Assembly: GCA_965602195.1 (NCBI GenBank)
Contig: CBFCYF010000002.1
Location: forward strand, 1-62,295
Direction: 5' to 3'
DNA length: 62,295 nucleotides
Source: an uncultured archaeon
GTDB taxonomy: Archaea > Altiarchaeota > Altiarchaeia > IMC4 > QMZM01
Part shown: one piece after another, positions 3,622 to 59,555 of the stretch
Numbering within the stretch: the stretch's first letter is position 1
Layout of the letters: every line of letters starts with the position of its first letter
Program-made: the position numbers and the translations under genes
Notes under the pieces: model-generated
The model's input: only the letters and a program-made list of their open reading frames with translations
What the model was told of the DNA's origin: nothing
Databases searched by the model: none

Positions 3622-4269
3622 TTATTTCTTTCCTTCCAGTCTTTTATAAACCAGAAACAGGATGATGCAGAGGGCTATGATAAATAGAACCACGTATAGG
3701 GTGTAGTCGGTATTCTGGGGGGTGTATGTTCTTCCGCAATCTGTGTCTTCCTCAACCGCACAGTCGGGGTCGCATCTGCCGTCTTCTATTCCATCGCAGT
3801 AGTTGTCCTGCCCTCCAGAGGGACAGTCTAGGGGGCAGTTAATGTAGTTTTCCTTTCTATCTGACTCACATATGGTGTTGTTGTTACAAACCAGAATCGT
3901 TGTCGTATTAGTAGTCGGCCTCACACTAGTCGTACTCGTTGATATGGTTGTTGTGGGTGGACTTTTGACTTTAACGGAGACGCAGTCGGATTTTCCTCCT
4001 TCATCGCATAACACTTTCAGGTAGTATGTTCCTTCTTTTGGGGGTGACCATTTTACTTCGCTACTGGAGATGGTAAATCCGTAGAGGGGTGAGCCCTCAC
4101 ATCGTGTTTCGAATACATCCAGTGATCCGGCTCCGTGTGGGCAATCTGAGGTACACCTGCAGTTGCCTACGTAGCATTCGGGACATGATATTGTGATCCC
4201 GTGTGCTGTTCCCATCAACATCAGTAGTATTATCCCTCCTGTTATCTTGTTCATGGTTTCACCGGGCAT
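3622..4269 (-). CDS. Membrane-anchored Cys-rich surface protein
   Basis: Signal peptide; two Cys-rich modules separated by a Thr-rich linker (SPPTTTISTSTTSVRPTTNTTT); C-terminal TM plus KRLEGKK anchor. Confidence 0.6.
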   Translation of the reverse strand: MPGETMNKITGGIILLMLMGTAHGITISCPECYVGNCRCTSDCPHGAGSLDVFETRCEGSPLYGFTISSSEVKWSPPKEGTYYLKVLCDEGGKSDCVSVKVKSPPTTTISTSTTSVRPTTNTTTILVCNNNTICESDRKENYINCPLDCPSGGQDNYCDGIEDGRCDPDCAVEEDTDCGRTYTPQNTDYTLYVVLFIIALCIILFLVYKRLEGKK

Positions 4270-7200
4270 GTTATGTCTATTACTTCGGTTGATTTAGACC
4301 ACGCGATTGGGTCTTCTAGTTTCGGGTCGGATTCCAGATATGCTCTCCATGATACTTCATAGTCGCCGGGTTCTACGGTAGAACAATAAATGATTCCTGA
4401 GGCGGTCCCTGTTCCTTCTGGGGCTACTGATGTCGAGACGGTTACAATTTTCCCTGTTTTAGTGTTCTTGAACAGGAATAATATGATAATGTCTTCTCCG
4501 GCACTGTTTTCATAATCTAGGTTGCATCTATATCCGCCTTCTATTGGACTACTGACGAAACTGTTGAATGAGTATTTGCCTGGAGTAATTGTGGTTGTTG
4601 TTGTGTCGGAGATGGTTGTTGTGGTGGTATCTGGTGGTGTGGTTGTTGTTGTGTCTGAGGTGGTGGTTGTGGTGTCGGAGATGGTTGTTGTGGTGGTTGT
4701 GGGGCATTCTGGGCATGGGTCAAGTTCTTCCATCAGGTATCTTATGACGTGTCCGCAGTCTGCTCCGTATAGGGTTGTGAATATATGGGCTTCGTAGCAG
4801 GATCCTGTGTTGGGTGTGTTTGGGGTCATTTCCAGGTCTATCCATATCCAGAATTGTTCTCCGCAGTGGGGGCCTTCCCTGATTTCTATCAGGGCCTCCT
4901 GTGATTCTCCGCCGCCTTCTGCACAACCTGTTTGCGTGCATCCTAAGTCTATGATCTTTATGTTATATTTGCTGTCCGTCACCCATGTGGGGTTGCTGTG
5001 GCTGTGGCAATCTGCTGGGATGGTGGTTGTTGTTGTGGTGTCTGATGTGGTTGTTGTTGTGGTGTCGGAGATGGTTGTTGTGGTGTCGGAGATGGTTGTT
5101 GTGGTGGTTGTTGGCGGCGTTCCCGGACAATCCACTGGATCTGTTATGCATGAGCCAAGGGCACAATTTGTAATGGTGCTACACCCCCCATCCATACAAT
5201 AACTCTCAAGAACATCAAGAGGCCAGGGGAGTTCTCGGTCACACCATTCGCAGCTGTTATCCAGGCATTCGTGGCAGTTGTCAAGATCTCCGCATTCTGT
5301 AGGTATCACACAAGCTCCGTTTTTGCATCCGTAGCCGGTTGGGCACGTGATGTCGATGGTTTCTATATAGTATGTGTCGACGCAGTAGTGTTCCCTTAGT
5401 TTATCACCTATGCAGGCGTCTTTTCCTCCTGTTCTGATTCGTGCGTCTCTTTCATTGGCGGCGTGTTTTCTGAAACCATATGTGTGTGCTTGTGTATAAT
5501 AGTCTTTTCCATTATCCGGGTCTGAGCATGGTTGTTTGGTGGAGTCAAATACTCTGCAACTGTCGGTTTCTTGATCCCAGTAGCATGTTGTGATGTCAAG
5601 GCAATTATCCATTGTTTTTTTATCTAAGCATTCACTTGTGTTTATCGTTGTAGTGGTGGTTGTATCTCCCGTTGTAGTAGTGGTTGTATCTCCCGTTGTA
5701 GTAGTGGTTGTATCTCCCGTTGTAGTAGTGGTTGTATCTCCGCAGCATATGTCTCCGCAGCAGCCGCTGGTGCAGTCTTTCACGTATACCCAGTGATAAA
5801 TTGCTGTGGTTGTTGTGGTGTCTGATGTGGTTGTTGTTGTGGTGTCTGATATGGTTGTTGTTGTGTCGGAGATGGTTGTTGTTGTGTCTGATGTGGTTGT
5901 TGTTGTGTCTGATGTGGTTGTTGTGGATGAGCTTGTGGATGATGTGGTGGATGAGCTTGTGGATGATGTGGTGGATGAACTTGTGGATGATGTGGTGGAT
6001 GAACTTGTGGATGATGTGGTGGATGAGGTTGTGGTTGTGTCACAGTCTACAACCTTGAAGCTGTTTTCCTCTTCTGCTTCACACCCGTTTATTATTGCCT
6101 CTACGACAAACCTTCTGGTCCCAGGGATACCAAGATCGTCACTCCACTCATAGACGCCAGTAGTGACCCGTTCAAAGCCGTTCGTAACTAAAATACCATC
6201 TGGGTAGGGGTGGTATGGGTTGTAGAGTATTACCCGATACCAGGATGGGTCTGTCAACTTTCCATCATATCTAAATCTTAGGGTTGCAGTGAATGTATCA
6301 CCTTCACAGTATTCATCCTTATCGAATTTAATTTCTACGGAACAGTCTCCGCCACAGTATACAACCTCAACGCTGTTTTCCTCTTCTGCTTCACATCCCT
6401 CTATTGTTGCTTCTGCATCCACCTCCAGGGTTCCTGTTGCCACCATCGTGAATCTCGCTTCCTGTATACCTTCTGACTTTTTTGTAAAACGATCTGAGTA
6501 ATCGCCTCCATCTACCAGCACCCTCCTCCAGGATGGATCCGTCAAGTCTCCATCATGTTTGAATTTTAGAGTTATTACTACTTCGTCTCCCACACAGTAT
6601 TCTGCTTTGTCAAATTCAATGTCTATGGAACAGTCTGGGGGTGTGCCACACTCACCAATCCAAAAACTTGTGGATGCAGGACTTGTATACGCCATTTGGT
6701 CTGCACTATCATATACCTTCCCAGAGAAGTGGTATGTGCCCTCTGTGGGTGGTACGTACGTCCAAGTATTGGAGCATGTAGTACTAGTCCCAGTGCACTG
6801 ATGGCTGTGCCACAAACCCCCATATTCGGCCTCGAGTTTAGCCATATCTATGTCGTCATACCCATTTATAGTGATATACATTGGCTGCCCGACACAAGGT
6901 GTAGCTGGGGTGTAGCTGAGGGTGCCAGACGGAGGATTATCCTGTGATGCTACGCATACTCCGTCCTCGCATGTTTTTCCTGCGTTACAGTCAGAGTCAA
7001 TGCGGCATTCTACTACATTAACATATACGCATTGTGGGTCTGTCCAACTCTCCTGGGAGCTACTATCAAGTACATAGCCACAGTACTCATATGTGCCTGT
7101 GGTCGACTCTGAGAAATCCCAAAATTTTATGCATTCAGTCTGAGTTCCAGAGCAAGATTGATGGTGCCAGGTGTTACCATACCATGCACTGACTTTAGCT

Positions 7201-7775
7201 ACATCTATATCATCCCTCCCATTTACAGTGATTTCTATCTGCTCCCCAATAAGGGCGGGACCGCCAGATGGCCAGACAGCCAGGAAACCCCAGGGAGGAT
7301 TATCCTGTGATGCTACGCATACTCCGTTTTCGCATGTTTTTCCTGCGTTACAGTCAGAGTCAATGCGGCATTCTACTACATTAACATATACGCATTGTGG
7401 GTCTGTCCAACTCTCCTGGGAGCTACTATCAAGTACATAGCCACAGTACTCATATGTGCCTGTGGTCGACTCTGAGAAATCCCAAAATTTTATGCATTCA
7501 GTCTGAGTTCCAGAGCAAGATTGATGGTGCCAGGTGTTACCATACCATGCACTGACTTTAGCTACATCTATATCATCCCTCCCATTTACAGTGATTTCTA
7601 TCTGCTCCCCAATAAGGGCGGGACCGCCAGATGGCCAGACAGCCAGGAAACCCCAGGGAGGATTATCTCCTGCAACAGAGCCTGCCAGAATAACCGTAAT
7701 CAAAACCAAACATAGGAGTAAACTCTTCCATCTCATTTTACTTCCCTTCCCGTGGCTGATACTATATGACCTCAT
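4251..7775 (-). CDS. Giant secreted adhesin-like surface protein (1174 aa) with a tandemly duplicated domain and Thr/Ser-rich linkers
   Basis: N-terminal signal peptide (a more likely start is M14 at 7736). It carries two identical 121-aa domains (DNPPWGF...CVASQ) plus a divergent third copy, multiple Cys-rich modules, and DTTTTT(S/I), GDTTTTTT and STSSSTTSS linkers. Confidence 0.75.
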   Translation of the reverse strand: MRSYSISHGKGSKMRWKSLLLCLVLITVILAGSVAGDNPPWGFLAVWPSGGPALIGEQIEITVNGRDDIDVAKVSAWYGNTWHHQSCSGTQTECIKFWDFSESTTGTYEYCGYVLDSSSQESWTDPQCVYVNVVECRIDSDCNAGKTCENGVCVASQDNPPWGFLAVWPSGGPALIGEQIEITVNGRDDIDVAKVSAWYGNTWHHQSCSGTQTECIKFWDFSESTTGTYEYCGYVLDSSSQESWTDPQCVYVNVVECRIDSDCNAGKTCEDGVCVASQDNPPSGTLSYTPATPCVGQPMYITINGYDDIDMAKLEAEYGGLWHSHQCTGTSTTCSNTWTYVPPTEGTYHFSGKVYDSADQMAYTSPASTSFWIGECGTPPDCSIDIEFDKAEYCVGDEVVITLKFKHDGDLTDPSWRRVLVDGGDYSDRFTKKSEGIQEARFTMVATGTLEVDAEATIEGCEAEEENSVEVVYCGGDCSVEIKFDKDEYCEGDTFTATLRFRYDGKLTDPSWYRVILYNPYHPYPDGILVTNGFERVTTGVYEWSDDLGIPGTRRFVVEAIINGCEAEEENSFKVVDCDTTTTSSTTSSTSSSTTSSTSSSTTSSTSSSTTSSTSSSTTTTSDTTTTTSDTTTTISDTTTTISDTTTTTTSDTTTTTAIYHWVYVKDCTSGCCGDICCGDTTTTTTGDTTTTTTGDTTTTTTGDTTTTTTINTSECLDKKTMDNCLDITTCYWDQETDSCRVFDSTKQPCSDPDNGKDYYTQAHTYGFRKHAANERDARIRTGGKDACIGDKLREHYCVDTYYIETIDITCPTGYGCKNGACVIPTECGDLDNCHECLDNSCEWCDRELPWPLDVLESYCMDGGCSTITNCALGSCITDPVDCPGTPPTTTTTTISDTTTTISDTTTTTTSDTTTTTTIPADCHSHSNPTWVTDSKYNIKIIDLGCTQTGCAEGGGESQEALIEIREGPHCGEQFWIWIDLEMTPNTPNTGSCYEAHIFTTLYGADCGHVIRYLMEELDPCPECPTTTTTTISDTTTTTSDTTTTTPPDTTTTTISDTTTTTITPGKYSFNSFVSSPIEGGYRCNLDYENSAGEDIIILFLFKNTKTGKIVTVSTSVAPEGTGTASGIIYCSTVEPGDYEVSWRAYLESDPKLEDPIAWSKSTEVIDITCPVKP
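5647..5741. repeat. 24-bp coding tandem repeat x4 (GDTTTTTT)
   Basis: gttgtagtagtggttgtatctccc is repeated four times. Confidence 0.85.
5921..6030. repeat. 27-bp coding tandem repeat x4 (STSSSTTSS)
   Basis: The unit gatgatgtggtggatga(g/a)cttgtg is repeated; similar imperfect ggttgttgttgtggtgtcggagatg repeats occur at about 4596-4720, 5021-5115 and 5806-5900. Confidence 0.8.
6931..7656. repeat. Perfect 2 x 363-bp tandem duplication inside the giant gene
   Basis: Sequence 6931-7293 is repeated at 7294-7656 with no visible mismatches; it encodes the duplicated 121-aa domain. Confidence 0.9.
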
Positions 7776-13107: not shown

Positions 13108-13283
13108 GGGCCCGTGGCTCAGCATGGTTAGAGCGCTCGACTGATAATCCCGATGCAGTCATAAGACACCCTAAGGAACCCTCCTTTTTGTCTGTGAACT
13201 GTCCACAGGGAATACCTAGTGTTCCTTGTACCCTCCAGGGATTAGTAATCGAGAAGTCCGGAGTTCAAATCTCCGCGGGCCCA
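13108..13283 (+). tRNA. tRNA-Ile(GAT) with a ~101-nt intron at the canonical 37/38 position
   Basis: Exon 1 GGGCCCGTGGCTCAGCATGGTTAGAGCGCTCGACTGATA; exon 2 ATCGAGAAGTCCGGAGTTCAAATCTCCGCGGGCCCA. The 7-bp acceptor, D, anticodon (CTCGA/TCGAG, loop CTGATAA) and T arms all pair. The intron is about 13147-13247. Confidence 0.8.
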
Positions 13284-14147: not shown

Positions 14148-14900
14148 TTATTCATCGTTATCGCAGATGTTGTTAACATTTTTATCCAAGCAGCAGCCTC
14201 TGCCGTGGCGGATGTAAGGTGGATTGCAGACGACTTTCTTCGCTTCCGGTTCCTCTCTGCTAAACCCAATGAGACGCTTCATCTCCCCCACCACCGACTT
14301 GACGATGTTGACAACCTCGCCGACGGCCTCCTTCACAAACCCAGTTGCTCTCTCAATGATTCCCCGCTCTTTTTCCGGCGACTCACCGGCTCCCGCCAAC
14401 AACCCCTCCACCTGCACAAACTCTCCCTCCAGCTTCATAGACTCCAAGACTGGCTGAGCCTCCCAAGCATATCCGATGAGGTCCTCCTCCTGAGCGGAGA
14501 CAGTCGCCAGATACAACCGACCCCCAGCTGTGAAGACGTCATTGATGACGTAGACGTCAGGGTCGTTGGGGAGGTTAGACATGAAACGCATTGTTTTCTG
14601 GCCCGCAACATCCCCTGAGGGCATGTCCCTCAACAGGGCTCCAAACGTCTCAAGTTGCTTGCGGTACAAACGAATGGCGTCGCTGCCGCTTCCATTAAGA
14701 GGCACCCACGTCGCTGACAAGAGGACATCTCCAGGTTTTTCTGTGTGGGTGAGGGAGAGCATGTTATCTGTTTTGCCGCTGATACGCCAGCGGTTGCTGT
14801 ACTCCAAGGTGATGCCGTTGGTTTCGGCGGTGTGGGTTGCGGCACCTGATGTGAACAACAACACAAACACCACCCCCAAAATCATCTTCTTTAAGTTCAT
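14148..14900 (-). CDS. Secreted hypothetical protein in the GC-rich island
   Basis: Signal peptide MNLKKMILGVVFVLLFTSGAATHTA; C-terminal Cys cluster; a 4-nt ATGA overlap with the upstream gene. Confidence 0.6.
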   Translation of the reverse strand: MNLKKMILGVVFVLLFTSGAATHTAETNGITLEYSNRWRISGKTDNMLSLTHTEKPGDVLLSATWVPLNGSGSDAIRLYRKQLETFGALLRDMPSGDVAGQKTMRFMSNLPNDPDVYVINDVFTAGGRLYLATVSAQEEDLIGYAWEAQPVLESMKLEGEFVQVEGLLAGAGESPEKERGIIERATGFVKEAVGEVVNIVKSVVGEMKRLIGFSREEPEAKKVVCNPPYIRHGRGCCLDKNVNNICDNDE

Positions 14901-17647
14901 TTTGATGTTGGAATAAATGTTTGAATAACACTATTTGCGACATTGTGAACATCACGGCTTCCCTCACGAGTCTTGACGTCGCCGGGTCTCCCGTTCAAGT
15001 ATCCCACCCATGTGTTGACGACTGCCGTATCCCCCCCGGGTGATGTGCGCAACATGCCGATGTGCTGAAGCTTGTCGTTGTAGTCTGCGATGTGGCGAAG
15101 CATGTGGCCCTGGGACTGGGCGAGCGTTTGCTGGCTCTGAAGCATCTGGTTGAAGGCCCTACGTGCGCCGGCATCGTCGCCGTCCCTAATGGCTTGGGCT
15201 GCCTGTTGCTCGTATCTTAGTGTCTGGTCGGCTTGGGACAGCACATTACGCCTGCGGGGGACGTTCTCCTGGCTGAAGGCGCCGACTCGGCTCCTGCTGC
15301 TCTGGACTTCACTCACATAGTTGGTGTTGCCCTTTACGTTCCCCTTAAAGTCGTTGAAGTTGCGGGTTGTGCTGGAGGCGCGGGCTACGCCGACGTTGTT
15401 GGCTACGTTGTTGTCGCGGTTTTTCTGCCCCCTGATCGTGTTCTCCAGGCGGTCGAGGTTGTCCATGCCGTAGGCGCCGCGCATCAAAGCCTGCTGGTTG
15501 AGGCCGATGAACTTGAAGACGCCGCTCATCGCGTTCATGGTTCCCTCAATAGCGCCGGTTGCCTCGTAGCCGAGGAAGTGGTCGCTTATCTTGATGATTT
15601 CGTTGTACATCTTATTCTTCATGGGGCCTGTCATCTTCTGGGCGATGTATTGTTTGATTGCTGTGGTCCCCGCCACGTAGACTGAGTTCGGGACGTAGTT
15701 TTTGATGGCGTCGGTCACTATCTTCTCATATCCCTGGATTGCGTAGAGGCTGTCGATGACTGCGGCTCCGGAGCGGGTCCGGTAGATGGACTTACCTATC
15801 TTGTCTACTCTAAACGCAGCCGAAAGTCCCCCTTGGAGCGTCGACTGTGAGGTCAAGCCGAGGCGCTGGGCCAAGCCCAGGTTTGCGGCGCGGCCGAGCT
15901 GCGCCGACGGCCCGAACGTGAGAAAGGTGTCCCAAGCGGAAAACTGGCGTGAAACAAAGTCTGCTTCGTTGTACTTAAGAATCTCTGTGTCGAAGTAGTC
16001 GCGTCCGATGTCGATGTTATACTGGGTCTTGTCGCCGTTGCGTATTGCGTTGACGTCTACGTTTCTGAAGGCGTCCCAGATGCGCTGTCTGAGCTTCTGG
16101 GCTTGGTCGTCTGTTAAGTCCTTCCCGTAGTGTTCCTTGATCACCTCCTTCAGTCTGTCCTTGCTGAACTTGTTCATTTCCTCAAAGGTGACCCCCTGGC
16201 GACGCAGGTCTTCTACCAGCTTGATGCCTGCTATCTGGCGGGTGGCCTCGTCCACCTGGAGGTCGGCCATGTCCCCGAGTATGTCGTAGTAGCCAGCTAG
16301 TGCCCCTATACTCTCTCCTACGCCTGTGGTGGCGACGTCGATGAGGATGTTGCCGATGCCCGCCTCGCCGTGGCTGTTGAGTTTGTCGTTGAATAACCTA
16401 GCGGTTTTGCTCATGTCCACTGAGAGGTGGTCACGGATGCGCTGCAGGTATTCGAGTTCGACGTTTTGGATGATGCGATTGGCAAAGAGGTTGTCTGGCT
16501 CTTCCTCAAGGATCTTGCGTGCGCTGTGGAGGGCCATGCGGGTGTCGCCTTCCATCTGCTGGCGGAAGACGTTTAGGGTGAGGGCGTCGACTCGGGCGCG
16601 TGGGTTGGCTGTGAGCTTGGGGAGCATCTCGTCGAACTTGTGGGTGGCTCCGCAGCGGAGCGTTAAACTCAGGTGGGTCATGTCGAGCTCTGTGCGGAGG
16701 AGGTTCAGGTAGTTAGAGTATTCATCACGGTGTTTGTAGTCGAAGAAGCCTCCATCCATGTTGTCGAGGATTTCATAGAGCTTTGAGGCTTGTCGCTCGA
16801 ATTCTTCAAGCAACTTGTCCTGCTCCTCACGGAGACGTTCAAGGTCCTTTTTGGCTTCTTCTTTATCTTCCTCTGATCCGTGCTTGAGCATCCATTCAGC
16901 GTCCCTGATCTGGGAGAGGATGTAGTCTGCTTCAGCGTAGAGGTCTTTAATGTCTTTGAGGAATCGGTTCTTCAAGGCTAGGTAGTCGACGACGTTGCGG
17001 GTGATGGCCCGTACTATCTTCTGTTGCTCGGTTTCCTCGGTCTCGACGCAGACGCATTCGTTGGGTTCGCTGTCTTCCTGCGAGAACTCGGTGCCTGGTT
17101 CCCGCTTGCAGACGTCCTCACATGATTCGCAGCCGTCGGCTGTCATCTGCCAGCCTACTTCGCAGATGCCTGTGCAGTCCCCTGAGTCGTCGATGACGCC
17201 TATCATATGTTCGCCTTTCTTCCGCCAATATTTGTCACATTCATCCTCTTCTTCGCTGTCGTATTCGCGGGCGGTGGATGTGGTCGGCGGCGAGGTCAAG
17301 GTCGTCGTCTCGCCGGGGCAGGGTTCATCGGGGAGGACGCATTTAATGAGGTAGCTGCCTGGACAAAAGTTGCCGCACTTCTTGCGGTCGAAGCTCTCGT
17401 AGTCTACAGGTCTTCTACAAGCTTTTGAGTACTTGTCCTCTTCCGGGTCGTCGATGTTGTCATTGGCAGCGCAGATGCAGGCCCGAGTGTAGCTCCAGTG
17501 GGCGTGGGGGCGGTTGTTGCAGTCCTCCTGTACACATCCCACACCGCTCATACGCTGCCAAGTAAAATCGGGAGGGCATTCGACTGCAGTAACACAGTTG
17601 GCCAACAAAAACAGGGAGAGCACGGTTACATAAAGCCTTTCTGTCAC
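14897..17647 (-). CDS. Large secreted protein (916 aa) with a Cys-rich N-terminal domain and long alpha-helical/coiled-coil region; GC-rich island
   Basis: Signal peptide MTERLYVTVLSLFLLANCVTA; 20+ Cys in the first 200 aa; the rest is helical. Local GC is about 55-58%, against about 40% elsewhere. Confidence 0.65.
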   Translation of the reverse strand: MTERLYVTVLSLFLLANCVTAVECPPDFTWQRMSGVGCVQEDCNNRPHAHWSYTRACICAANDNIDDPEEDKYSKACRRPVDYESFDRKKCGNFCPGSYLIKCVLPDEPCPGETTTLTSPPTTSTAREYDSEEEDECDKYWRKKGEHMIGVIDDSGDCTGICEVGWQMTADGCESCEDVCKREPGTEFSQEDSEPNECVCVETEETEQQKIVRAITRNVVDYLALKNRFLKDIKDLYAEADYILSQIRDAEWMLKHGSEEDKEEAKKDLERLREEQDKLLEEFERQASKLYEILDNMDGGFFDYKHRDEYSNYLNLLRTELDMTHLSLTLRCGATHKFDEMLPKLTANPRARVDALTLNVFRQQMEGDTRMALHSARKILEEEPDNLFANRIIQNVELEYLQRIRDHLSVDMSKTARLFNDKLNSHGEAGIGNILIDVATTGVGESIGALAGYYDILGDMADLQVDEATRQIAGIKLVEDLRRQGVTFEEMNKFSKDRLKEVIKEHYGKDLTDDQAQKLRQRIWDAFRNVDVNAIRNGDKTQYNIDIGRDYFDTEILKYNEADFVSRQFSAWDTFLTFGPSAQLGRAANLGLAQRLGLTSQSTLQGGLSAAFRVDKIGKSIYRTRSGAAVIDSLYAIQGYEKIVTDAIKNYVPNSVYVAGTTAIKQYIAQKMTGPMKNKMYNEIIKISDHFLGYEATGAIEGTMNAMSGVFKFIGLNQQALMRGAYGMDNLDRLENTIRGQKNRDNNVANNVGVARASSTTRNFNDFKGNVKGNTNYVSEVQSSRSRVGAFSQENVPRRRNVLSQADQTLRYEQQAAQAIRDGDDAGARRAFNQMLQSQQTLAQSQGHMLRHIADYNDKLQHIGMLRTSPGGDTAVVNTWVGYLNGRPGDVKTREGSRDVHNVANSVIQTFIPTSK

Positions 17648-37310: not shown

Positions 37311-40300
37311 TCATTCATAAACTGTTATGTTAACTGGTTTACTCTTATCCGATATGTCTGGATTATAATATTCATACACCTTCGACTCGGGCGTCTTTGC
37401 TTTTATGGGGTAAAGTGCTTTTAGCCTGTAGGTGAATTCCAGAGGCTTATTTGAACTTATACCGCTCACATACAATATAAGTTGTCTGCCTGTGATCTCA
37501 TATCTATCTACTGCCTCCATGCTCTTAAGCTCTTCCAGGTCTCCTGCAACAACAGAGAATCCAGGTGGAATGCCTAAATCAATTATCACCAGATTAGCTG
37601 CTCCCACCCCGTTGTATGAGGCCTTGACTTTTACTTCAGCCATATCGTTGATCCTGATGTCTGTCGTATCGTATTCCACGTCGATCTTGATTATCTTATC
37701 TGTTGATTCTGTTTTCTCCCAGGGGACATAATATTTTCCAGCTATCTGATAAAATAGGAGTCCTTCACCTTCGTATTCTATCCTGACCTTATTTAATCCC
37801 TCCCGTGTATAGCTTTCCAGATCGATTAGCTGCAGTACCTCGTTGTTTGATTCATCTATGTTGATTCTTGATGCCTTTGCATCATTGATAAACACATCTA
37901 CTACCCCCTTACTACCTGCTTGTTGTAGATGCTCTGCCGCGTAAATTAAGGCCTTTAATGAGAGAACTGTTGCTTGAGTTGAACTATAAGTGCCGAAACT
38001 ATCCTTCTGCTTGATGAGGTAGTTCAACATTTTAACTGCTTTCCCGGGGTTTTTCCCAGCCTTCATATGTGCTAAGGCTGTGAGGGCGGTGATCTCAATG
38101 TCTCTGATACTGCCCTTCGACCCCATTATCGTTCTATCCGTGCTTTCTCCACCACTACTCCAGTGTATCGTATCATTATCCTCTATTTTTGTTTCATCTA
38201 ATTTACTTAGTATGGACTCTACTACCTTTCCGTCTCTGCCATACTCAACCAAGGCGTTTGCGCATAGTGCCAGAGTGTATTCGTCACTGGTTCCTGAGTT
38301 AATATTTTCTTTAATGTAGGATACTGCGTTATCTATCTTATTGCCCCTGTAGTCGCTATTAACCAGGCTCCATGTTATGAGACATGTTGCCGTTAATTTA
38401 GAGCGGGCCATATCCCGGGAGAAATCCACTAGATGACCTTTGGCCTCCCATGAACCGTCACTATTCTGCTGCTCTAGAATCCAGTTCTGTGTTCTTGGGA
38501 TCAGCTCCTCATCTATGTTATAGACCTCAGACATATCCTGAAATTCCATCAGACCGTATGCAGTTAAAATCAGTTTAGGTGGAGGGCTCCCAAACAGGGA
38601 GAACCCACCTGGGGTGTCTGTCTCAAAAGTGAGTAGTCTCTGGTAACCTGTCGCAACATATCCCTCAGCCTTCATCTGCAGTTCCGGGGTTATCTGTTCC
38701 GTCCTTTTCATGTAGTCCAATATCAATACATTCGGGTAGGTTATGGAGGTGGTCTGTTCAAAACACCCGTGAGGTACCCTGAATATATTATCAAGTCCAT
38801 CAACAACCTGGCTGAAGTATCCTGGATAAATCTTCACAAGAATCTTTGATGCATCATCTACGCTGTACTCTGGGATGTATACCTCCTCCTCTATAATACC
38901 CTCAAGCCGGCCATTTGTTGTTGCATAGGTTTCCTCCCCATCCGGAACAACCTCTATCTGCCGTGAAATAGCATCGCTTTTCTCTGTTCCATACGCGTAG
39001 ACCGTGAATTTATGCGGTCCATGCTTCAGTACTTTAATGTGATAGTATGTAACTGTGACCTCACTTGGGTTTAATCTGACTGTCTTCTCTTTCTCATCCA
39101 TTAACTCAAACCAGTATCCCTCCATTAGCTCCAAGCGTATATCCTGGGGCTTATCCAGGTAGTTGTATAGTGCTACTGGAACCCATACCTCATCTCCCTG
39201 GGTCAGGGTTCGGGGCAGATCAACATCAATAAAGAAATCCTGGAATACCAGAATCCCTTTATCTGTGCCGCCTAATCTACCGTCTAATGTGGAGGCTATG
39301 GCACTAAGCCTCCATGAGGTTATGGAGTCAGCCATCTTCAACTCTATGGTTGCTTTACCCTCCTCATCTGTTATCAATGACGGGTTGCTGTACAGGGTTT
39401 CAGGGAAAAACTGTCGGAGGTAAGGCGTGGCTCCCCCCACAGTATCTGCCTCCTCCGTGTCAGGGTACTGCTTGGAAGCCCCATCATATGTCTCTGACCA
39501 GAAGCCAGCGGAACCGCTGCCTGAGGTTCCCAGCTTGAATACCCCCAGCTGCCATATCACTATTGCCCCAAAGAAGACTATAGACAGGATGATGATGAGC
39601 AAAGCCACGGAAAAGAACACAGCCAAAAATTTCTTTCCTATGGCTTTCTCCTTCGTCTTTCCCTTAACGCCTCTCTTTCTGTTTCTAATCCACTTGCAGA
39701 TACCATATATGCCATATAATGGAGTAACTATGAGAACAAGCAGTAAAGCTATGCCTATCACCATAAAATACAGTTGGAGGATGCCAAAGATCATGGTTGA
39801 TGTCGTGTGATCAACATTTATCTGGAGGAATACAACCAGGATAATGAGTATAAACATCAGGAATATCCCCAGGATAAAACCCAGCATAGGGGCAAGAATC
39901 AATAATTGAATTATCCTGTTTTTACCTGATGCGATCTCAACCAGACCGTATATGAGGAGAACTGGATACGCTAGGAGAATTAATATCAGGATTATAATGC
40001 CCACAAGATACAGTTTCCCTGTGTAATCCTTCTTCTGGTCCTCTATCCTGTTTTTCTTTGATATGAATGTGTCTTCCATTATATCGAAGTCGGTTACCTC
40101 CTCAATGGATGCCATATAGGCTCTTGCAACGTCTTCCTCCTCCACCTCTATCTCCGGTCTGATTACTGGGGTTTCCCCTGGTTCTTCTTTCCTTGGCTTG
40201 ATTATCTCTGTGAGTTGAACGTTTTTTATCTGGAATCGCGGCTCAAGAATTTCTTTTTCGAAAAGAAAGTATATCTTCTCAAAGCCGGGCTGTATTTCCT

Positions 40301-42602
40301 TTAGGGCATAAACTGATTCATCAACTATATTAACTCCTAGGGCCGACTGAACCCCGCCGTCCTCATCGCTGACCCTGAAGGATATCTCAGCTTCTTCCCC
40401 TGGAAGATAAACCTCCTTGTCTGTTTCAACATCAATATCCAGATCCCTTGGCATATAAACAATGACTTTCTTAACGTCCCTTACTATGTCCGTGGACCTT
40501 AAAATTTTGTATGTGTGGATCTCAAGGTTTCCTATCATATCAGGTGTTATCTCCAGGTTAACTACGCCTCTGCCACCCTCCAGCTCCAATGCCTTCGTCA
40601 ATATCGTCTGCTTGTTCTTTATCACATCCACGTATGCTGTTTTTGTTCCAACAGAACCGGATGAATAAACGTTAAGGATTGATGTATCCCCAACATAGTA
40701 TATTGGCTTATCCGTATGGAAGATTATCTGCTCTCCTCCCGCTTCTGTAGAGAGATGTTCTGTCTTGGATGATGCTCTCCCTGACTTGTCTCTTGCTGTA
40801 ACACTGATTTTATAGTTTCCTCCCTCAGATGGAGTGAATTTAAATGAACCCACCCCAAGAGTGTTTGTCTCTCCCTTCTTGCTGTTTACAGTTAATGTGG
40901 TTTTAGCCGGTGATTGATCCGGGTAGGTTGTTACCACATATACTGTGTTCTCCATCCCCACCTTCAGCTTGTTTCTCTCAGGTATTATGTGGATGTTTAT
41001 GGGATGTTTTGATACAGGCACTGTTTCAACGATGGTTTCCCTGTGATTTGTGCTGTCTGTGACTGAGACATTTAAAAGAAGTAAAGCGTTGCCTTTCTCC
41101 AGGGGCAGGCCAACGAGGTACTCTGGGAGCTTTACCTCGAAATCAAAGTTTCCGAATTCATCTGTTTTTCCGGTGACGTGGGCGTGTTTCTTCACATCTA
41201 TTTCATACGCGGATACGGTGACATCAACGTTCGCGTTGGAAACCGCTTTGCCGAAGAAGTATTGTGCCGAGAGAAAGCCTTTCAGTGTCTCAGATGGTAG
41301 ATAAAAGTCGCTGTCTGTCTCGAAATCTATCCTGTATTTAGGCAGCACATATTTCTCGACTTTGATCTTCTTCTCCTGTTCATCCAGGGATGTCAGGGCC
41401 CTTACAGTGTATCTTCCCGTAAGTACTTCATCTGCCAGGGTAAACTCTGCTGATGAGATGCCGTAGTCGTTGGTTTGGGTGATGAGCTTGAATACTTTAT
41501 TGGATTTGGAGTCTTCAACCTCCAATGTGATGTTTTCGTTGGCATAGGGTTTCAGGTTAAATGGATTTAATACAAGGGCTCTTATGTGTATCTCCTGCGT
41601 CGGTTGATAGATTGGTTTATCTGTGGTGAGAAGTATCTTAGCCTTTCGCCTTATCTCCACATTTTTCTCTATTAAGTCCGGGCCAGCCTTTATTATTAAC
41701 CTGTATTCCCCGGGAGCTATATCCTCCGGGACATTAAACTTTACATCCACAGTCCCAGTATCTGAGGTTTTCCCTTGGTAGAGTATCTTCTCGTATCTGT
41801 TCAATAAATCCCCTTTAGTTATCTTCACCTCAATATCTGTGTTTTCTATTGGGTTACCGTTCACAGATTCCCTGGCAATGACTCTCAGTGAGGCTGTTGA
41901 GCCTGAGATGAATTTACTGTGAGCGAATACGAGTGTCTGCTGTTCGCTTGTGAAATGCTCAAGGTTGTAGATGTAGAATGTATATGAAAGAAAGGATATC
42001 AGGAAGATGACGACAGCGTATCCAATATATTTTCTGTTGAGTTTTGGTTTCCCGTGTCTTTTAAGGTAAAAAAATACTGTGGCGAGGCAGATAATAGTGA
42101 TCATCACATATACGGGGGTTAAATCAACACCTGCTTCCTTTTCTGCTTTTCCCTGGGGTTTCAGGGTGGTTGTTATTTTATTTGCTGCTGCTCCTGAGCT
42201 ATCCATGGGACCCCATATTCTGCCGGTACTGCTGCGGATTATGCCTGTAATCTGGTTTTCATGAACTAATGTAACTTTGAAATCATAGCTGTCTACTCCG
42301 GGCATAGCGCAGTTTGGATGGGCGGCCACATTTAAGGTGAATGTGTCTCCTGCGGCAACAACTGTTTCTGTGGCGGTGATTCTTCCGCAACGGAGGCCAT
42401 TGTTTTCCACATAGCTGTCTTTGGGATATACTTTTATGTTTGACCCTGCGGCATTCATAAATACAATCGCCCCTGAACCATCATCGCTGAAGGCGTGGTC
42501 TATGGGCCTCTGTGCGGATACTAAAACAGAAAACGGAAAGATCAGGATACATAACATGAGAATAAGTTTATAACTGATTTTTGGTTTTCCCCTATTCATC
42601 AT
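37311..42602 (-). CDS. Alpha-2-macroglobulin-like giant protein (1763 aa) with internal membrane-spanning segments
   Basis: N-terminal signal/TM; MG-like beta-rich regions; a cluster of 4-6 TM helices at about aa 875-1010; C-terminal thioester-domain-like region with HGCFEQT (compare the GCGEQ thioester) and an A2M receptor-domain-like tail. Confidence 0.65.
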   Translation of the reverse strand: MMNRGKPKISYKLILMLCILIFPFSVLVSAQRPIDHAFSDDGSGAIVFMNAAGSNIKVYPKDSYVENNGLRCGRITATETVVAAGDTFTLNVAAHPNCAMPGVDSYDFKVTLVHENQITGIIRSSTGRIWGPMDSSGAAANKITTTLKPQGKAEKEAGVDLTPVYVMITIICLATVFFYLKRHGKPKLNRKYIGYAVVIFLISFLSYTFYIYNLEHFTSEQQTLVFAHSKFISGSTASLRVIARESVNGNPIENTDIEVKITKGDLLNRYEKILYQGKTSDTGTVDVKFNVPEDIAPGEYRLIIKAGPDLIEKNVEIRRKAKILLTTDKPIYQPTQEIHIRALVLNPFNLKPYANENITLEVEDSKSNKVFKLITQTNDYGISSAEFTLADEVLTGRYTVRALTSLDEQEKKIKVEKYVLPKYRIDFETDSDFYLPSETLKGFLSAQYFFGKAVSNANVDVTVSAYEIDVKKHAHVTGKTDEFGNFDFEVKLPEYLVGLPLEKGNALLLLNVSVTDSTNHRETIVETVPVSKHPINIHIIPERNKLKVGMENTVYVVTTYPDQSPAKTTLTVNSKKGETNTLGVGSFKFTPSEGGNYKISVTARDKSGRASSKTEHLSTEAGGEQIIFHTDKPIYYVGDTSILNVYSSGSVGTKTAYVDVIKNKQTILTKALELEGGRGVVNLEITPDMIGNLEIHTYKILRSTDIVRDVKKVIVYMPRDLDIDVETDKEVYLPGEEAEISFRVSDEDGGVQSALGVNIVDESVYALKEIQPGFEKIYFLFEKEILEPRFQIKNVQLTEIIKPRKEEPGETPVIRPEIEVEEEDVARAYMASIEEVTDFDIMEDTFISKKNRIEDQKKDYTGKLYLVGIIILILILLAYPVLLIYGLVEIASGKNRIIQLLILAPMLGFILGIFLMFILIILVVFLQINVDHTTSTMIFGILQLYFMVIGIALLLVLIVTPLYGIYGICKWIRNRKRGVKGKTKEKAIGKKFLAVFFSVALLIIILSIVFFGAIVIWQLGVFKLGTSGSGSAGFWSETYDGASKQYPDTEEADTVGGATPYLRQFFPETLYSNPSLITDEEGKATIELKMADSITSWRLSAIASTLDGRLGGTDKGILVFQDFFIDVDLPRTLTQGDEVWVPVALYNYLDKPQDIRLELMEGYWFELMDEKEKTVRLNPSEVTVTYYHIKVLKHGPHKFTVYAYGTEKSDAISRQIEVVPDGEETYATTNGRLEGIIEEEVYIPEYSVDDASKILVKIYPGYFSQVVDGLDNIFRVPHGCFEQTTSITYPNVLILDYMKRTEQITPELQMKAEGYVATGYQRLLTFETDTPGGFSLFGSPPPKLILTAYGLMEFQDMSEVYNIDEELIPRTQNWILEQQNSDGSWEAKGHLVDFSRDMARSKLTATCLITWSLVNSDYRGNKIDNAVSYIKENINSGTSDEYTLALCANALVEYGRDGKVVESILSKLDETKIEDNDTIHWSSGGESTDRTIMGSKGSIRDIEITALTALAHMKAGKNPGKAVKMLNYLIKQKDSFGTYSSTQATVLSLKALIYAAEHLQQAGSKGVVDVFINDAKASRINIDESNNEVLQLIDLESYTREGLNKVRIEYEGEGLLFYQIAGKYYVPWEKTESTDKIIKIDVEYDTTDIRINDMAEVKVKASYNGVGAANLVIIDLGIPPGFSVVAGDLEELKSMEAVDRYEITGRQLILYVSGISSNKPLEFTYRLKALYPIKAKTPESKVYEYYNPDISDKSKPVNITVYE

Positions 42603-55925: not shown

Positions 55926-57494
55926 ATGGTTAAAAAACCTAAAGGAGAGTCTGGATCGGTTCAAGATGCAGGGTATAATGCCGACTACTATGAAACAGAA
56001 GTGGAGTCTTATAATATCTCTGTAGGGAACATAACTCTGCAGGTCATCATCAAGGATGTGGGGGATTACGTGCCTCACTATCAGATCGTACTGCCGGAAA
56101 TAGATCATGTAACCAGCGCCTTGTTAGAGGAAACAAAACACAGTCTTGTGGGTGAGGTTAGGATGCCGGGGGGTCAGAAAGTAAGTGACTCCGAGGAGGC
56201 CACAGAACTCAGGGTGAAGTTCCTGAATAAAGCAAGGGAAAAGTTGAAGAACGTTCTGCGGAAGGCATCTGAGAACGACATCAACATGCTAAGCAGGAAA
56301 TTAGTGAATGATATGGTTGGTTTAGGGGACATCGAATATCTCCTGGAGGATGCCTTTCTGGAAGAAGTTGTGGTTAATAACAGCAGAGATATGGTCTGGA
56401 TTTTCCATAAAAGATACGGGTGGTTGAAGACAAACATAAGCATATCCTCGGAGGATAAGATAATGAACTATTCCTCCAGGGTCGCAAGACAGGTGGGCAG
56501 GGAGATAACCCACCTCGAACCTCTACTTGATGCTCATCTAACTACTGGAGACCGGGTGAATGCCACTCTATTCCCCATATCCACAGGGGGTAATACTCTC
56601 ACTATAAGACGATTCTCCAGGACTCCCTGGACTATAGTACATATGCTCCGTCCTGACTTCGGCACAATAAGTTTTGAAGCTGCTGCTTTCCTATGGCTCG
56701 CAGCAGAATATGAGCTGAGCATGCTAGTCACAGGAGGAACTGCATCAGGAAAGACATCTATGCTTAACGCAATGATGCCTTTTATGCCCGCAAATCAGAG
56801 AATAATATCGATTGAGGATACCCGGGAGTTGAATCTCCCAAACTTTCTTCACTGGATACCTCTGTCAACAAGAGCAGCAAACCCCCGGGGGGAAGGTGAG
56901 GTGTCAATGCTCGACTTGGTTGAGAACGCCCTCAGGATGAGACCCGACAGGATTATTGTAGGGGAAGTCAGAAGAAAGAGAGAAACGGAGGTAATGTTTG
57001 AGGCAATGCATACCGGCCACTCCGTTTACGGAACATTCCACGCTAATAGAGCCTATGAGGTTATAGAGAGGATCACGAGCCCGCCCATGAATATTCCCCC
57101 CGTGGTTACGGGTTCACTACAACTGATTGTTAGTCAGCATATAAACCGGAGGACTAAACAGAGAAGAACCTTCGAGATCGTGGAGTTGGTAAGGAAAGAG
57201 GGGGGCGGTATGCCAGAACTAAACACGGTGTATCAATGGAACTCCAAAACAGACGAGGTAGAGCCAGTAAACCCAAGTAAAAGACTCAACGAGGAATTAC
57301 GGTTGTTTACGGACATGAGCGATAGGGATATAGAAGAGGATCTGCAAGGAAAGCAGAGGATTCTGAAATGGCTCTTGGAGAGAGATATTACCGACGTTAA
57401 TGATGTAGGGAAGATAATCACCGAATACTATATCGACAAAAGCACAGTACTTGACCTTGTGGAGAGCGATAAAGATTTAGGTCTTGAGGTCTAA
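55926..57494 (+). CDS. Type IV pilus/archaellum-type secretion ATPase (FlaI/TadA-like)
   Basis: Walker A TGGTASGKTS; Walker B RIIVGEVR; His box. Confidence 0.85.
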   Translation: MVKKPKGESGSVQDAGYNADYYETEVESYNISVGNITLQVIIKDVGDYVPHYQIVLPEIDHVTSALLEETKHSLVGEVRMPGGQKVSDSEEATELRVKFLNKAREKLKNVLRKASENDINMLSRKLVNDMVGLGDIEYLLEDAFLEEVVVNNSRDMVWIFHKRYGWLKTNISISSEDKIMNYSSRVARQVGREITHLEPLLDAHLTTGDRVNATLFPISTGGNTLTIRRFSRTPWTIVHMLRPDFGTISFEAAAFLWLAAEYELSMLVTGGTASGKTSMLNAMMPFMPANQRIISIEDTRELNLPNFLHWIPLSTRAANPRGEGEVSMLDLVENALRMRPDRIIVGEVRRKRETEVMFEAMHTGHSVYGTFHANRAYEVIERITSPPMNIPPVVTGSLQLIVSQHINRRTKQRRTFEIVELVRKEGGGMPELNTVYQWNSKTDEVEPVNPSKRLNEELRLFTDMSDRDIEEDLQGKQRILKWLLERDITDVNDVGKIITEYYIDKSTVLDLVESDKDLGLEV

Positions 57495-58389
57495 ATTAAA
57501 TCAGATCGCTATATATATAAAAATGGAATCACCTTTTAATTCAGAAGAATTTCAAAAATCTGCAGCAGCCTTTAAACCCAGCGCAAAGCATATAGCGCTG
57601 GTTTTCCCGGAGCTGGAATGGGATCTGAGGAGATCTGAGTACAATATACATGCGGTTCCTTATCTGTCTATGGCTCTCCTCATATCATTCCTTGTTTTTG
57701 TTTTCTCTTTTGTGTTGCTAACAATGCCTTTACTGGCAACAAAAAGCCAAGCCGACACCTATCTGGTTGGTTCCATACCCTTTGCCCTGTCTATCTCTGC
57801 CTTCGTTTACCTCCTGTTACTACCTAAACTGAAGCTGATGAGAAGAGGTAGAGCTGTTGAGAGGGATCTTGAATTTATGCTTAAGGACATGCAGGTGCAA
57901 TTAACTGCCGGTGTCCCCTTATTTAATTGCCTTGCCAACATAGCGAATGGAGGTTATGGCGAATGCTCTGCTATAATAACAGAAATAGTTGGGGAGATTC
58001 AATCAGGAGCCTCCATGGCGGATGTTCTGAACGAGTACGGAATGTCCTCTCCCTCAGAGCATTTCAGAAGGGCTTTATGGCAAATATCTAACGCCATGAG
58101 AGTCGGCTCAGATATAAAAACGGCTATAGGGGCTATATCCAATGATATCCGTGAGGAGAAAGAAAACCAGATAAAAAGCTATGGGAAAGAACTCAGCCTG
58201 TGGGGTCTGGTTTATATGATGCTGACTATTGTTGCACCATCCATGGGGGTAACTCTACTGCTGATACTATCAAGTTTTTTAGGATCATCCTCCATTAATG
58301 AATTAACATTTTGGGGTGTTCTTGCCGGGATAATAGTCTTTCAGTTGCTGTTCATAACCATCATAAAAAGTAAAAGACCGTTTGTCTAA
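57484..58389 (+). CDS. TadB/FlaJ-like membrane protein (T2SS F domain)
   Basis: T2SSF-like helical domain between TM segments; the start is probably the internal MESP at 57523. Confidence 0.65.
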   Translation: MRSKLNQIAIYIKMESPFNSEEFQKSAAAFKPSAKHIALVFPELEWDLRRSEYNIHAVPYLSMALLISFLVFVFSFVLLTMPLLATKSQADTYLVGSIPFALSISAFVYLLLLPKLKLMRRGRAVERDLEFMLKDMQVQLTAGVPLFNCLANIANGGYGECSAIITEIVGEIQSGASMADVLNEYGMSSPSEHFRRALWQISNAMRVGSDIKTAIGAISNDIREEKENQIKSYGKELSLWGLVYMMLTIVAPSMGVTLLLILSSFLGSSSINELTFWGVLAGIIVFQLLFITIIKSKRPFV

Positions 58390-58394
58390 AAAAA

Positions 58395-59555
58395 ATGAAA
58401 AAAAAAGATATAACAAAAATTGTCTATGCAGTACCCATCATCCTACTGAAGGTGTTGTTATATCCCTTCACCTTAATTGCGAGATTTTTTAGATGGTTAA
58501 CTACTGCCATCATCAGTGTTCTGAGGCCCGCCATGGCTATTATCACAAAATTTATCCTTTCACTTCACCTAAAGCTGGGTTTCTTATTCCCCTCGAATAC
58601 CAGAAAATGGCTACACAACATTTTTATATACTCTGGGATTACTCAAAACCCTGAGGAGGCATTGGGTGTGACACTACTCTACAGCCTTATGTTCCCTATA
58701 GTCACTGCCTTGATTACTCTTTTTTTTATGGATTTTCCTATTGAGTTGGTTATTTCATCCTTTATTGCCGTATTTCTTGCGGTATGGGTGCTTATGTACA
58801 TAATACTCCAGGTTATGATTGACCGACGAACTACTAACATAGAACATGTGCTGCCTGATCTGTTGTCATTAATAAGCCAGAATATGAGGGCAGGGATGAC
58901 ACCATATAATGCATTATGGGCTGCTTCGAGACCAGAATTTGGGCCGCTGGCATTAGAACTGCAAATCGTTGCCCAAGATACTCTAGCCGGAGTCTCTCTA
59001 GAGGATGCATTGCTGAACGTCACTAAACGAGTAAAATCTGCAAAATTGGATAGATGTATCAGATTAATGGTTCAGGGGATGAGATCCGGAGGTGAACTCC
59101 CCTCAGTACTGCAGGAAATTGCAGAGGGCATCAGATCAGAACAAAACCTAAAAAAGAGGATGGCAGCCGAAACGACATCACAGGTATTATTCATTGTGTT
59201 TGCATTAGTAATCGGCGCACCCATGTTGTTTGCCGCCTCTCATCAATTCGTCACCGTATTCGCTCAAACGTTTTCTTCCATAGGTCTGTCGGAGGGCACA
59301 TCACGCGGAGATTCCTTAATACAGCTAGAGGGATTCGCTATTGAACCAGGATTTTTCTCTCTCTACGCCATCTGTGTGTTAATCGTCTCCTCTTTCTTTG
59401 GTTCATTAATAATAAACATCATGAAAAATGGCGAGATGCTTTCTGCCTCGGGAATAACCCTCATCCCCCTGCTCATGGTTCTCTCCGTAGCTGTCTTCTG
59501 TGTGCTGGATACTCTTCTCGGTTCCTTATTCCAGGGTATGATCTCAACCATCTGA
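58395..59555 (+). CDS. TadC/FlaJ-like membrane protein (T2SS F domain)
   Basis: Second T2SSF-like domain (LLSLISQNMRAGMTPYNALW...). Confidence 0.65.
   Translation: MKKKDITKIVYAVPIILLKVLLYPFTLIARFFRWLTTAIISVLRPAMAIITKFILSLHLKLGFLFPSNTRKWLHNIFIYSGITQNPEEALGVTLLYSLMFPIVTALITLFFMDFPIELVISSFIAVFLAVWVLMYIILQVMIDRRTTNIEHVLPDLLSLISQNMRAGMTPYNALWAASRPEFGPLALELQIVAQDTLAGVSLEDALLNVTKRVKSAKLDRCIRLMVQGMRSGGELPSVLQEIAEGIRSEQNLKKRMAAETTSQVLFIVFALVIGAPMLFAASHQFVTVFAQTFSSIGLSEGTSRGDSLIQLEGFAIEPGFFSLYAICVLIVSSFFGSLIINIMKNGEMLSASGITLIPLLMVLSVAVFCVLDTLLGSLFQGMISTI

Follow-up and report, generated by a model that had tools for sequence, protein, structure and literature searches.

Here we report that a 62,295-nt stretch of DNA from an uncultured archaeon of the Altiarchaeota (contig CBFCYF010000002.1; "the window" below means this whole stretch) carries a gene for a 1763-residue protein of the alpha-2-macroglobulin (A2M)/thioester-containing protein (TEP) superfamily, in which four predicted transmembrane (TM) helices appear to occupy the mid-chain slot used for the bait region in A2M and for the anaphylatoxin (ANA) domain in C3 and C5. 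Proteins of the A2M, TEP and complement families are spring-loaded traps, either soluble or tethered by a lipid, in which a free loop serves as bait and trigger. In the present protein, membrane helices, even in number, would fill the trigger slot, and the bait would be tethered to the bilayer. The interpretation that we prefer, with a probability of roughly 0.6, is a protease trap that is integrated into the membrane and has its bait tethered there; a trap or surface guard is also the most plausible form of the function offered in a preliminary description of this DNA, which had suggested a membrane-integrated protease trap or a cell-surface shield. In the full-text literature searched, the coverage of which is incomplete, neither an A2M-family protein with TM helices in the bait slot nor an A2M of Altiarchaeales is described, and Makarova et al. 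(2021, PMC8416519) mention neither mid-chain TM segments nor DPANN archaea or Altiarchaeales.

Domain architecture and fold

The gene is an uninterrupted open reading frame (ORF) with an ATG start (Table 1), predicted to encode a full-length A2M/TEP-family protein with MG1-MG6/BRD, MG7, CUB, TED and MG8/RBD. The set of eukaryote-type A2M Pfam domains is complete and in canonical order, comprising MG2 (residues 323-410, E = 2.9e-26), MG3 (417-492, 1.4e-8), A2M_BRD (628-767, 7.4e-16), A2M, corresponding to MG7 (1074-1159, 2.8e-19), TED_complement (1264-1552, 7.8e-47) and A2M_recep (1669-1750, 1.2e-14). A CUB domain is predicted from the beta-rich segments that flank TED in the AlphaFold2 (AF2) model, and the RBD closes the protein at residue 1763. 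No family-level NCBIfam model was found that matches the protein.

The closest solved structures by sequence are metazoan, with CD109 (1.1e-66) and human A2M (1.8e-62) followed by A2ML1, TEP1 and C3, and ECAM and SaA2M are distant (1e-7 to 1e-9). The AF2 models reached a mean predicted local distance difference test (pLDDT) score of 81.5 for residues 1-620 (>90 for MG1-MG4) and of 77.8 for residues 600-1763 (~90 for MG7 to RBD). Foldseek matched native CD109 (E = 4.8e-56 over 1192 alignment columns), native A2ML1, native A2M, TEP1, C5, ECAM and SaA2M, with TM-scores of ~0.55 to native conformers vs ~0.30 to protease- or methylamine-activated ones; the N-terminal half matched the beta-chains of C3, C5 and C4 (C3/C5 at E ~1e-21). 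Pfam, sequence matches and AF2 models thus bear out the A2M-family assignment of the preliminary description, and its proposed AlphaFold/Foldseek comparison with A2M, C3 and TEP structures returned native CD109, A2M, TEP1 and C5. On every feature that can be judged in silico, namely the MG array, the split MG6/BRD slot, a TED with CxEQ, and CUB plus MG8/RBD, the protein belongs to the A2M/TEP superfamily.

The bait/ANA slot

The position of the helix block within the chain is its mechanistically key property, which had not been part of the preliminary description. In an alignment with soluble and TM-bearing homologs, conservation runs through the end of the BRD (...VDESVYALKEIQPGFEKIYF...PRFQI, residue ~792) and returns at about residue 1061 in the motif PYLRQFFPETLY (residues 1060-1071), where R1063, F1066, P1067 and E1068 are invariant; the region between is lineage-specific throughout. 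HMMER pairs residue 1059 with residue 728 of human A2M and with residue 84 of the C5 alpha-chain, just past the end of C5a, and residue 1057 with residue 713 of Xenopus A2Moo. In A2Moo, residues 694-717 form the flexible bait and residues 718-726 pass through a "latch hole" between MG2, MG3 and MG6, while C3 has ANA plus alpha'NT at this bait/latch position (Arimura and Funabiki, bioRxiv 10.1101/2021.09.22.461418). Since our alignments resume just past the A2M/A2Moo bait and the C5 cleavage site, the four helices are predicted to lie in the bait/ANA slot (residues 793-1059), the 38-residue linker behind them (1022-1059) would take the position of the bait, and PYLRQFFPETLY would be equivalent to the latch or alpha'NT. 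The block is located between A2M_BRD and A2M/MG7, which agrees with the earlier observation that the helices separate an MG-like N-terminal part from the thioester part.

Across the family, the layout of the slot is constant: a pre-TM linker of 55-77 residues, a TM block of 121-256 residues and a post-TM linker of 36-82 residues. The post-TM linker is hypervariable, rich in A, P, M, E, D, G, S and T, and in the altiarchaeal protein it has the lowest model confidence of the whole chain (pLDDT 26-39). Because of this length range, the hypervariability and the low pLDDT, we consider the linker a bait candidate. Within the subclade of the altiarchaeal protein, an exit motif, (V/I)WQLG(V/I)F(N/K)(L/M)G, is conserved.

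The sequence of the block itself was not traced to any other protein. A phmmer search with the slot only against 1.84 billion representative proteins found no matches outside the protein's own A2M subclade, and hhalign comparisons of the TM blocks of the Chloroflexota, archaeal, Vulcanimicrobiota, PVC and Undinarchaeota groups gave nothing above reversed-sequence controls. On these two null results, we reject capture of a known membrane-protein family as the origin of the block. Since homologs of the slot occur only in the subclade, the blocks show no sequence homology from clade to clade and the number of helices varies from 2 to 8, conservation of position and parity but not of sequence looks like the signature of an anchor rather than of a catalytic or transport module.

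Soluble members of the same clade, which is characterized by a CFEQ thioester motif (e.g. P0007, P0005), have a slot with a median length of 221 residues and carry other inserts there. These include a motif like that of type II secretion system (T2SS) pseudopilin G (DPWG...GPDG..DD; PF08334) and/or CarboxypepD_reg (PF13620); PF08334 was seen as a precomputed annotation on several soluble proteins, and the motif lies at columns ~1000-1060 of the homolog alignment. Because soluble relatives carry such inserts at this site, the bait/ANA slot would seem to be a general insertion hotspot.

Transmembrane segments and topology

Kyte-Doolittle hydropathy marked segments at residues 8-34, 157-182 and 192-214 and a block at 859-1026. 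In the AF2 model, the block consists of four long helices (845-891, 896-928, 936-975, 987-1018) at pLDDT 50-65, and the earlier pair of helices spans residues 163-182 and 190-212. In total, the protein has seven hydrophobic helices: i) one at the N-terminus, ii) two in a hairpin and iii) four mid-chain. Of the helices listed previously, the two at about 165-215 were placed correctly according to both methods, and the presence of mid-chain helices holds as well; their number and span, formerly given as 4-6 at about 875-1010, have to be changed to four at 863-1021, and the N-terminal signal/anchor helix (8-34) is an addition. The lipobox consensus has a small residue at position -1; the N-terminus MMNRGKPKISYKLILMLCILIFPFSVLVSAQ shows no canonical lipobox, as its sole Cys stands in L-M-L-C without a small residue at -1.

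The N-terminal end differs from that of most relatives. An all-beta domain (residues 43-121), followed by a disordered linker (123-162), occurs among the relatives only in the closest ones (P0002, P0131, P0132). Because the relatives have a single N-terminal anchor helix, which in the alignment corresponds to the second helix of the hairpin, the beta domain together with one helix would be an N-terminal add-on of this subclade.

An even number of helices is needed to hold both A2M halves on one side of the membrane, and the mid-chain helix count is even in 32 of the 37 TM-bearing proteins (six in 27 of them, eight in two, four in two and two in one); the odd counts of the other five come from crude hydropathy segmentation. 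P0131 and P0132, which are outside the 37, have four and two helices by eye. Moreover, Lys+Arg density in the TM-bearing homologs is higher in the odd loops, predicted to be cytoplasmic (226/792), than in the even ones (48/422); loop 3 of the altiarchaeal protein, KWIRNRKRGVKGKTKEKAIGKK, is one of those predicted to be cytoplasmic. The loop charges follow the positive-inside rule, which argues that the mid-chain block is a real membrane segment.

Distribution of the membrane block

Of the 120 best database homologs, 6 have a mid-chain hydrophobic block. In species-representative genomes, a scan yielded 80 A2M loci, 75 of which cover the slot, and 31 of these 75 have the block; two further members of the altiarchaeal subclade came from the slot-only search. 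Altogether, there are ~40 independent homologs from several phyla with 2, 4, 6 or 8 helices at the same position. As a side observation, the prokaryotic A2M clade numbers at least 557 confirmed loci in species-representative genomes.

The block was found in 24/24 loci labelled as Chloroflexota or DPANN archaea (Woesearchaeota, Undinarchaeota), so that the block-bearing form appears to be the only one in the loci sampled from these groups, compared to 6/38 loci of other labelled phyla (Fisher p = 6e-12, uncorrected for phylogeny). The soluble relatives have an N-terminal signal peptide only, and the phyla in which soluble forms occur are generally diderm. This distribution supports a role of the block in retention, a rationale that also draws on the fact that ECAM and MagD are held at the inner membrane. 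In a neighbour-joining tree of the conserved C-terminal part, the TM-bearing groups form a basal grade, which is compatible with one as well as with several origins.

The thioester motif

The preliminary description had read the GCFEQ at residues 1279-1283 as a Gly-to-Phe change in CxEQ that may alter thioester chemistry. This view did not survive the comparison with homologs: CFEQ is present in 120/120 best database homologs and in all Cys-type genome loci, so that Phe at the x position is best regarded as a trait of the clade and not of this gene. Furthermore, E. coli ECAM with CLEQ is a functional thioester trap (PMC4498604). On these two findings, we reject the idea of a thioester variant with altered chemistry; as the x residue is outside the Cys-Gln bond, nothing suggests a chemistry peculiar to this protein. 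The VYEYYNP motif of the C-terminal domain is likewise invariant and aligns with SIVDYYEP of CD109. Based on both invariant motifs and on the analogy with the functional CLEQ of ECAM, the altiarchaeal protein is predicted to be thioester-competent.

Proposed mechanism and alternative explanations

In the proposed mechanism, the N-terminal signal/anchor helix and the hairpin would be followed by MG1-MG6 outside the cell, and the chain would then cross the cytoplasmic membrane four times, which would place MG7-CUB-TED-MG8 outside as well. The four-helix block would serve as membrane anchor and the adjoining exposed linker of ~38 residues as bait, with the ectodomain held in its native, spring-loaded conformation. 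An attacking protease, either extracellular or from a periplasm-like space, would cut the linker and thereby free the latch; the MG domains and TED would rearrange, TED would become exposed and the thioester between Cys1280 and Gln1283 would covalently capture the protease at the membrane surface. The cut would not separate the two halves, since strands from either side of the slot contribute to MG6. The scheme is modelled on the "untethering" of ECAM (PMC4498604) and on the latch model of A2M, in which bait tethering controls the latch (bioRxiv 10.1101/2021.09.22.461418).

Several points weigh against this interpretation. An anchor alone leaves unexplained why the bait slot, rather than a terminus, houses the helices. 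Moreover, the relatives are already anchored by an N-terminal helix, so that a second anchor would seem superfluous, which hints at an extra role for the block. Besides, Altiarchaeales are reported to have a double membrane (PMC4500143, PMC4460559), and in consequence a simple "retention in a monoderm" is not fully applicable to this host; in addition, six loci from diderm phyla carry the block. The gene lies among housekeeping genes, and its surroundings offer no link to proteases or defence. Finally, the topology is based on hydropathy, the positive-inside rule and AF2 secondary structure, and the mid-chain helices were modelled at pLDDT 50-65 only. If confirmed, a membrane-tethered trap would i) be a natural system to learn how bait tethering controls the latch, ii) extend thioester-based defence to archaea with unusual envelopes and iii) show the bait/ANA slot to be a general insertion hotspot.

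Instead of trapping proteases, the membrane-bound TED could act as a tagger or adhesin that covalently attaches the cell to a surface, a neighbouring cell, a virus or the biofilm matrix, or that tags a membrane-held invader in a complement- or TEP-like manner. We regard this as rather unlikely. It would suit a monomer-like, permanently cell-bound protein whose closest solved relatives include cell-surface CD109, TEP1 and C3 and whose insert sits in the slot that C3/C5 use for ANA; Altiarchaeales form biofilms, and immune or conflict roles have been proposed for other archaeal A2M homologs (Makarova et al., 2021, PMC8416519). However, no convertase-like partner, conserved neighbourhood or adjacent surface or conflict genes were found at the loci, and the hypervariable disordered linker resembles a broad-spectrum bait. 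Hydroxyl targeting is not indicated either, since HMMER against CD109 puts Asp rather than His at the C3-type catalytic His position, albeit in a loop of uncertain alignment.

The short linker that ties the latch to the last helix gives rise to a further idea, in which the block would work as trigger or transducer: the thioester would be fired by damage to the membrane, by extraction of helices or by intramembrane proteolysis, or bait cleavage would be signalled to the cytoplasm via the K/R-rich loop. It is always the bait slot, and never a terminus, that houses the insert, despite the existing N-terminal anchor; the exit motif is kept within the subclade, and in A2M the latch is under control of bait tethering (bioRxiv 10.1101/2021.09.22.461418). 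On the other hand, the cytoplasmic loops are short and without a domain, the number of helices ranges from 2 to 8, and the sequence of the block is neither conserved between clades nor found in homologs outside A2Ms, all of which makes such a function distinctly improbable. In its boldest form, which we see as a similarly long shot, the helices would functionally replace the bait: the latch would be tied to the bilayer, the warhead would be armed by membrane integrity, and proteolysis close to the membrane, extraction of helices or damage to the envelope would set it off. If true, the protein would guard the cell's own surface through a mechanical link between envelope breach and covalent capture. 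As it belongs to a very large prokaryotic clade that is nearer to metazoan CD109, A2M and TEP than to ECAM, the membrane-coupled form could then inform on the origin of complement-like systems.

An artefact, that is an assembly error, frameshift or fusion that joined two ORFs via a hydrophobic stretch, or a low-complexity region outside the membrane, has hardly any credibility left: the gene comes from a single metagenome-derived contig, the only one on which the exact 1763-residue protein was found, but the reading frame is uninterrupted, the flanks of the block are two halves of one A2M chain that are contiguous in soluble homologs, helix counts are even and loop charges biased, GC content of the block (0.41) is near that of the rest of the gene (0.44), and the layout recurs in ~40 independent assemblies across several phyla. 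The last point effectively refutes a fusion or frameshift and settles the corresponding worry of the preliminary description.

Candidate selenocysteine relatives

Among the 80 genome loci, 14 have an in-frame TGA in place of the thioester Cys codon, and all of them belong to a six-helix clade of Chloroflexota (Anaerolineae) (L005, L006, L007, L008, L010, L015, L018, L031, L037, L052, L058, L070, L074, L075; e.g. nt 9391 in L008 and nt 4102 in L007). The TGA stands in the context …P-H-G-*-F-E-Q-S/T…, the A2M frame runs ~478 codons further, and it is the sole in-frame TGA in each of these ~1630-codon genes. As TGA is otherwise a normal stop, terminating 3 of the 14 genes and 46/131 other long ORFs in the same loci, the standard code applies to these loci. 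The dN/dS ratio downstream of the TGA is 0.13-0.26 and not above that upstream.

In 14/14 TGA loci, a hairpin, (G)UACGUC-GGC/GGU/GUC-GACGUA(C), follows with its loop beginning 17 nt past the UGA. The hairpin is formed by fixed synonymous codon choices that are absent from Cys orthologs, and it is this conservation at synonymous sites that supports it; L017, a Cys member nested in the selenocysteine clade, has partly kept it. It fits the published constraints for the bacterial selenocysteine insertion sequence (SECIS), which are a loop of 3-9 nt, a stem of 4-16 bp, a G in the first two loop positions and a spacing of 16-37 nt (PMC13188914). When the region behind the TGA of L008 was searched against Rfam, no SECIS family was returned, as expected for the variable bacterial SECIS elements. 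For the 63 nt that follow the TGA, minimum free energy z-scores of the whole segment did not reach significance, the hairpin being short. We therefore consider the 14 Chloroflexota homologs candidate selenocysteine ("selenoester") A2Ms. Macroglobulin or thioester proteins are not mentioned in the main text of a 2026 review (PMC13188914) or of the deep-Sep and BSepDB papers; if real, selenocysteine A2Ms would constitute a novel family of selenoproteins whose selenoester chemistry is not redox-based.

Feature map and gene neighbourhood

Table 1. Features of the A2M/TEP-family gene and its predicted product, in order from the N- to the C-terminus.
Feature	Residues	Position in window	Strand	Remarks
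Complete ORF, predicted membrane-integrated A2M/TEP-family protein	1-1763	37311..42602	-	1763 aa
N-terminal hydrophobic segment	8-34	42501..42581	-	signal peptide or N-in anchor; positively charged n-region
Extra all-beta N-terminal domain	43-121	42240..42476	-	pLDDT ~70-80
Predicted TM hairpin	157-214	41961..42134	-	helices 163-182 and 190-212; K/R-rich connecting loop KRHGKPKLNRK
MG1-MG6 including bait-region domain	221-792	40227..41942	-	A2M_BRD 628-767
Pre-TM linker	793-862	40017..40226	-	partly helical, low model confidence
Four predicted TM helices in bait/ANA slot	863-1021	39540..40016	-	~863-889, 896-927, 936-968, 991-1021
Post-TM linker	1022-1059	39426..39539	-	G/S/T/D/E-rich; pLDDT 26-39; candidate membrane-tethered bait
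Conserved motif PYLRQFFPETLY	1060-1071	39390..39425	-	putative latch or alpha'NT equivalent
A2M (MG7) domain	1074-1159	39126..39383	-	
Thioester domain (TED)	1264-1552	37947..38813	-	
CFEQ thioester motif	1280-1283	38754..38765	-	Cys codon TGT; invariant in clade
C-terminal MG8/receptor-binding-type domain	1669-1750	37353..37598	-	holds invariant VYEYYNP motif

The A2M gene is flanked by the housekeeping genes for HMG-CoA reductase, a PP-loop ATPase, an AIR-synthase-like protein and phosphoglycerate mutase, and the window also encodes a DNA ligase, an HD-domain protein, a radical SAM protein and CDP-archaeol synthase. These four are among five window proteins that cluster at ≥90% identity with proteins labelled "Candidatus Altiarchaeales archaeon". 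Around the gene, neither pbpC nor a mag-type operon nor an adjacent protease was found in the window. A comparison of its neighbourhood with those of P0002, P0035 and P0038 revealed nothing in common, with no pbpC, mag genes or fixed protease partner; on the contig of P0002 (L001 14231-15721), a T2SSE ATPase and an S8 peptidase are encoded a few kb downstream of the A2M gene, a linkage that is not established. A scan of this archaeal DNA for sigma-70 promoters and terminators was uninformative, with counts equal to the shuffled expectation.

Some other features of the window deserve mention. A tRNA at 13108-13283 (+), detected by Rfam and missed by ARAGORN with bacterial settings, spans 176 nt with a long intron, which is consistent with an archaeal host. 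The stretch 55926-59555 (+), which is ~13 kb away from the A2M gene, encodes an ATPase of the T2SSE type and a membrane protein of the T2SSF type, similar to assembly genes of an archaeal type IV pilus or archaellum. The ORF at 4251-7775 (-) encodes 1174 residues with a signal-like N-terminus, near-identical repeats (DNPPWGFLAVWPSGGPALIGEQIEITVNGRDDIDVAKVSAWYG at least twice), 17% Thr including TTTTT(I/P)SD tracts, 5.5% Cys and no Pfam match; its product is probably a glycosylated surface protein. A second ORF without Pfam match, at 14897-17647 (-) (916 residues), also has a signal-like N-terminus, and its N-terminal part is Cys-rich; it is part of the single stretch of the window where GC is elevated (0.51-0.54 vs ~0.45) and, because of this, may have been acquired recently.

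Comparison with known systems

CD109 is attached to the cell by a C-terminal glycosylphosphatidylinositol (GPI) lipid. The native form (PDB 8s3o) is the best match of the altiarchaeal protein in both sequence and fold, and CD109 is a monomeric, cell-surface-attached protein with bait region and thioester. In contrast to its soluble bait loop and GCGEQ motif, the protein described here has predicted helices in the bait slot, further N-terminal helices, CFEQ and an archaeal host. Hydropathy revealed no C-terminal hydrophobic segment that could be a GPI-type signal as in CD109, the last segment ending at residue ~1024.

ECAM (YfhM) of E. coli and SaA2M of Salmonella are monomeric, outward-facing protease traps at the cytoplasmic membrane that are fired by untethering of a disordered bait (PMC4498604, PMC3735191). 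They share with the altiarchaeal protein a hydrophobic x residue in CxEQ. However, ECAM, a lipoprotein held at the inner membrane with a CLEQ motif (PMC4498604), has a lipid anchor, extra N-terminal MG domains and a gene that adjoins pbpC, whereas our protein has a predicted polytopic mid-chain anchor and eukaryote-type Pfam domains, without any bMG Pfam match. MagD is encoded in a magABCDEF operon, held at the inner membrane by partner proteins and devoid of CxEQ (PMC3735191); with CFEQ present and no mag-like operon at the locus, the altiarchaeal protein is not of the MagD type.

The complement proteins C3 and C5 also have a helical insert between the MG6 halves, followed by alpha'NT. Their ANA is a soluble four-helix domain that is released by a convertase, whereas the four helices predicted here belong to the membrane; the protein has no ANATO or NTR/C345C Pfam match and no two-chain processing site. 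In consequence, it lacks the features that define the subtypes ECAM, MagD, C3/C5 and CD109.

Archaeal A2M homologs have been described for Halobacteria and Methanomicrobia, with a signal peptide, Ig/MG domains, a TED with intact CxEQ and neighbourhoods of surface-protein or conflict genes, for which immune or conflict roles were proposed (Makarova et al., 2021, PMC8416519); the neighbourhood of the altiarchaeal gene is a housekeeping one. Other counterparts are the soluble CFEQ-clade A2Ms of Acidobacteriota, Armatimonadota, Planctomycetota and others, which have 40-50% identity over MG7-RBD, CFEQ and the same domain order, but other inserts in the slot instead of a TM block and only a signal peptide at the N-terminus. 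As an observation in its own right, this very large prokaryotic CFEQ clade has eukaryote-type Pfam matches, and its similarity to CD109, A2M and TEP of metazoa (E ~1e-66) far exceeds that to ECAM and SaA2M (E ~1e-8). This is relevant to the debate on the direction in which A2M was transferred between metazoa and prokaryotes.

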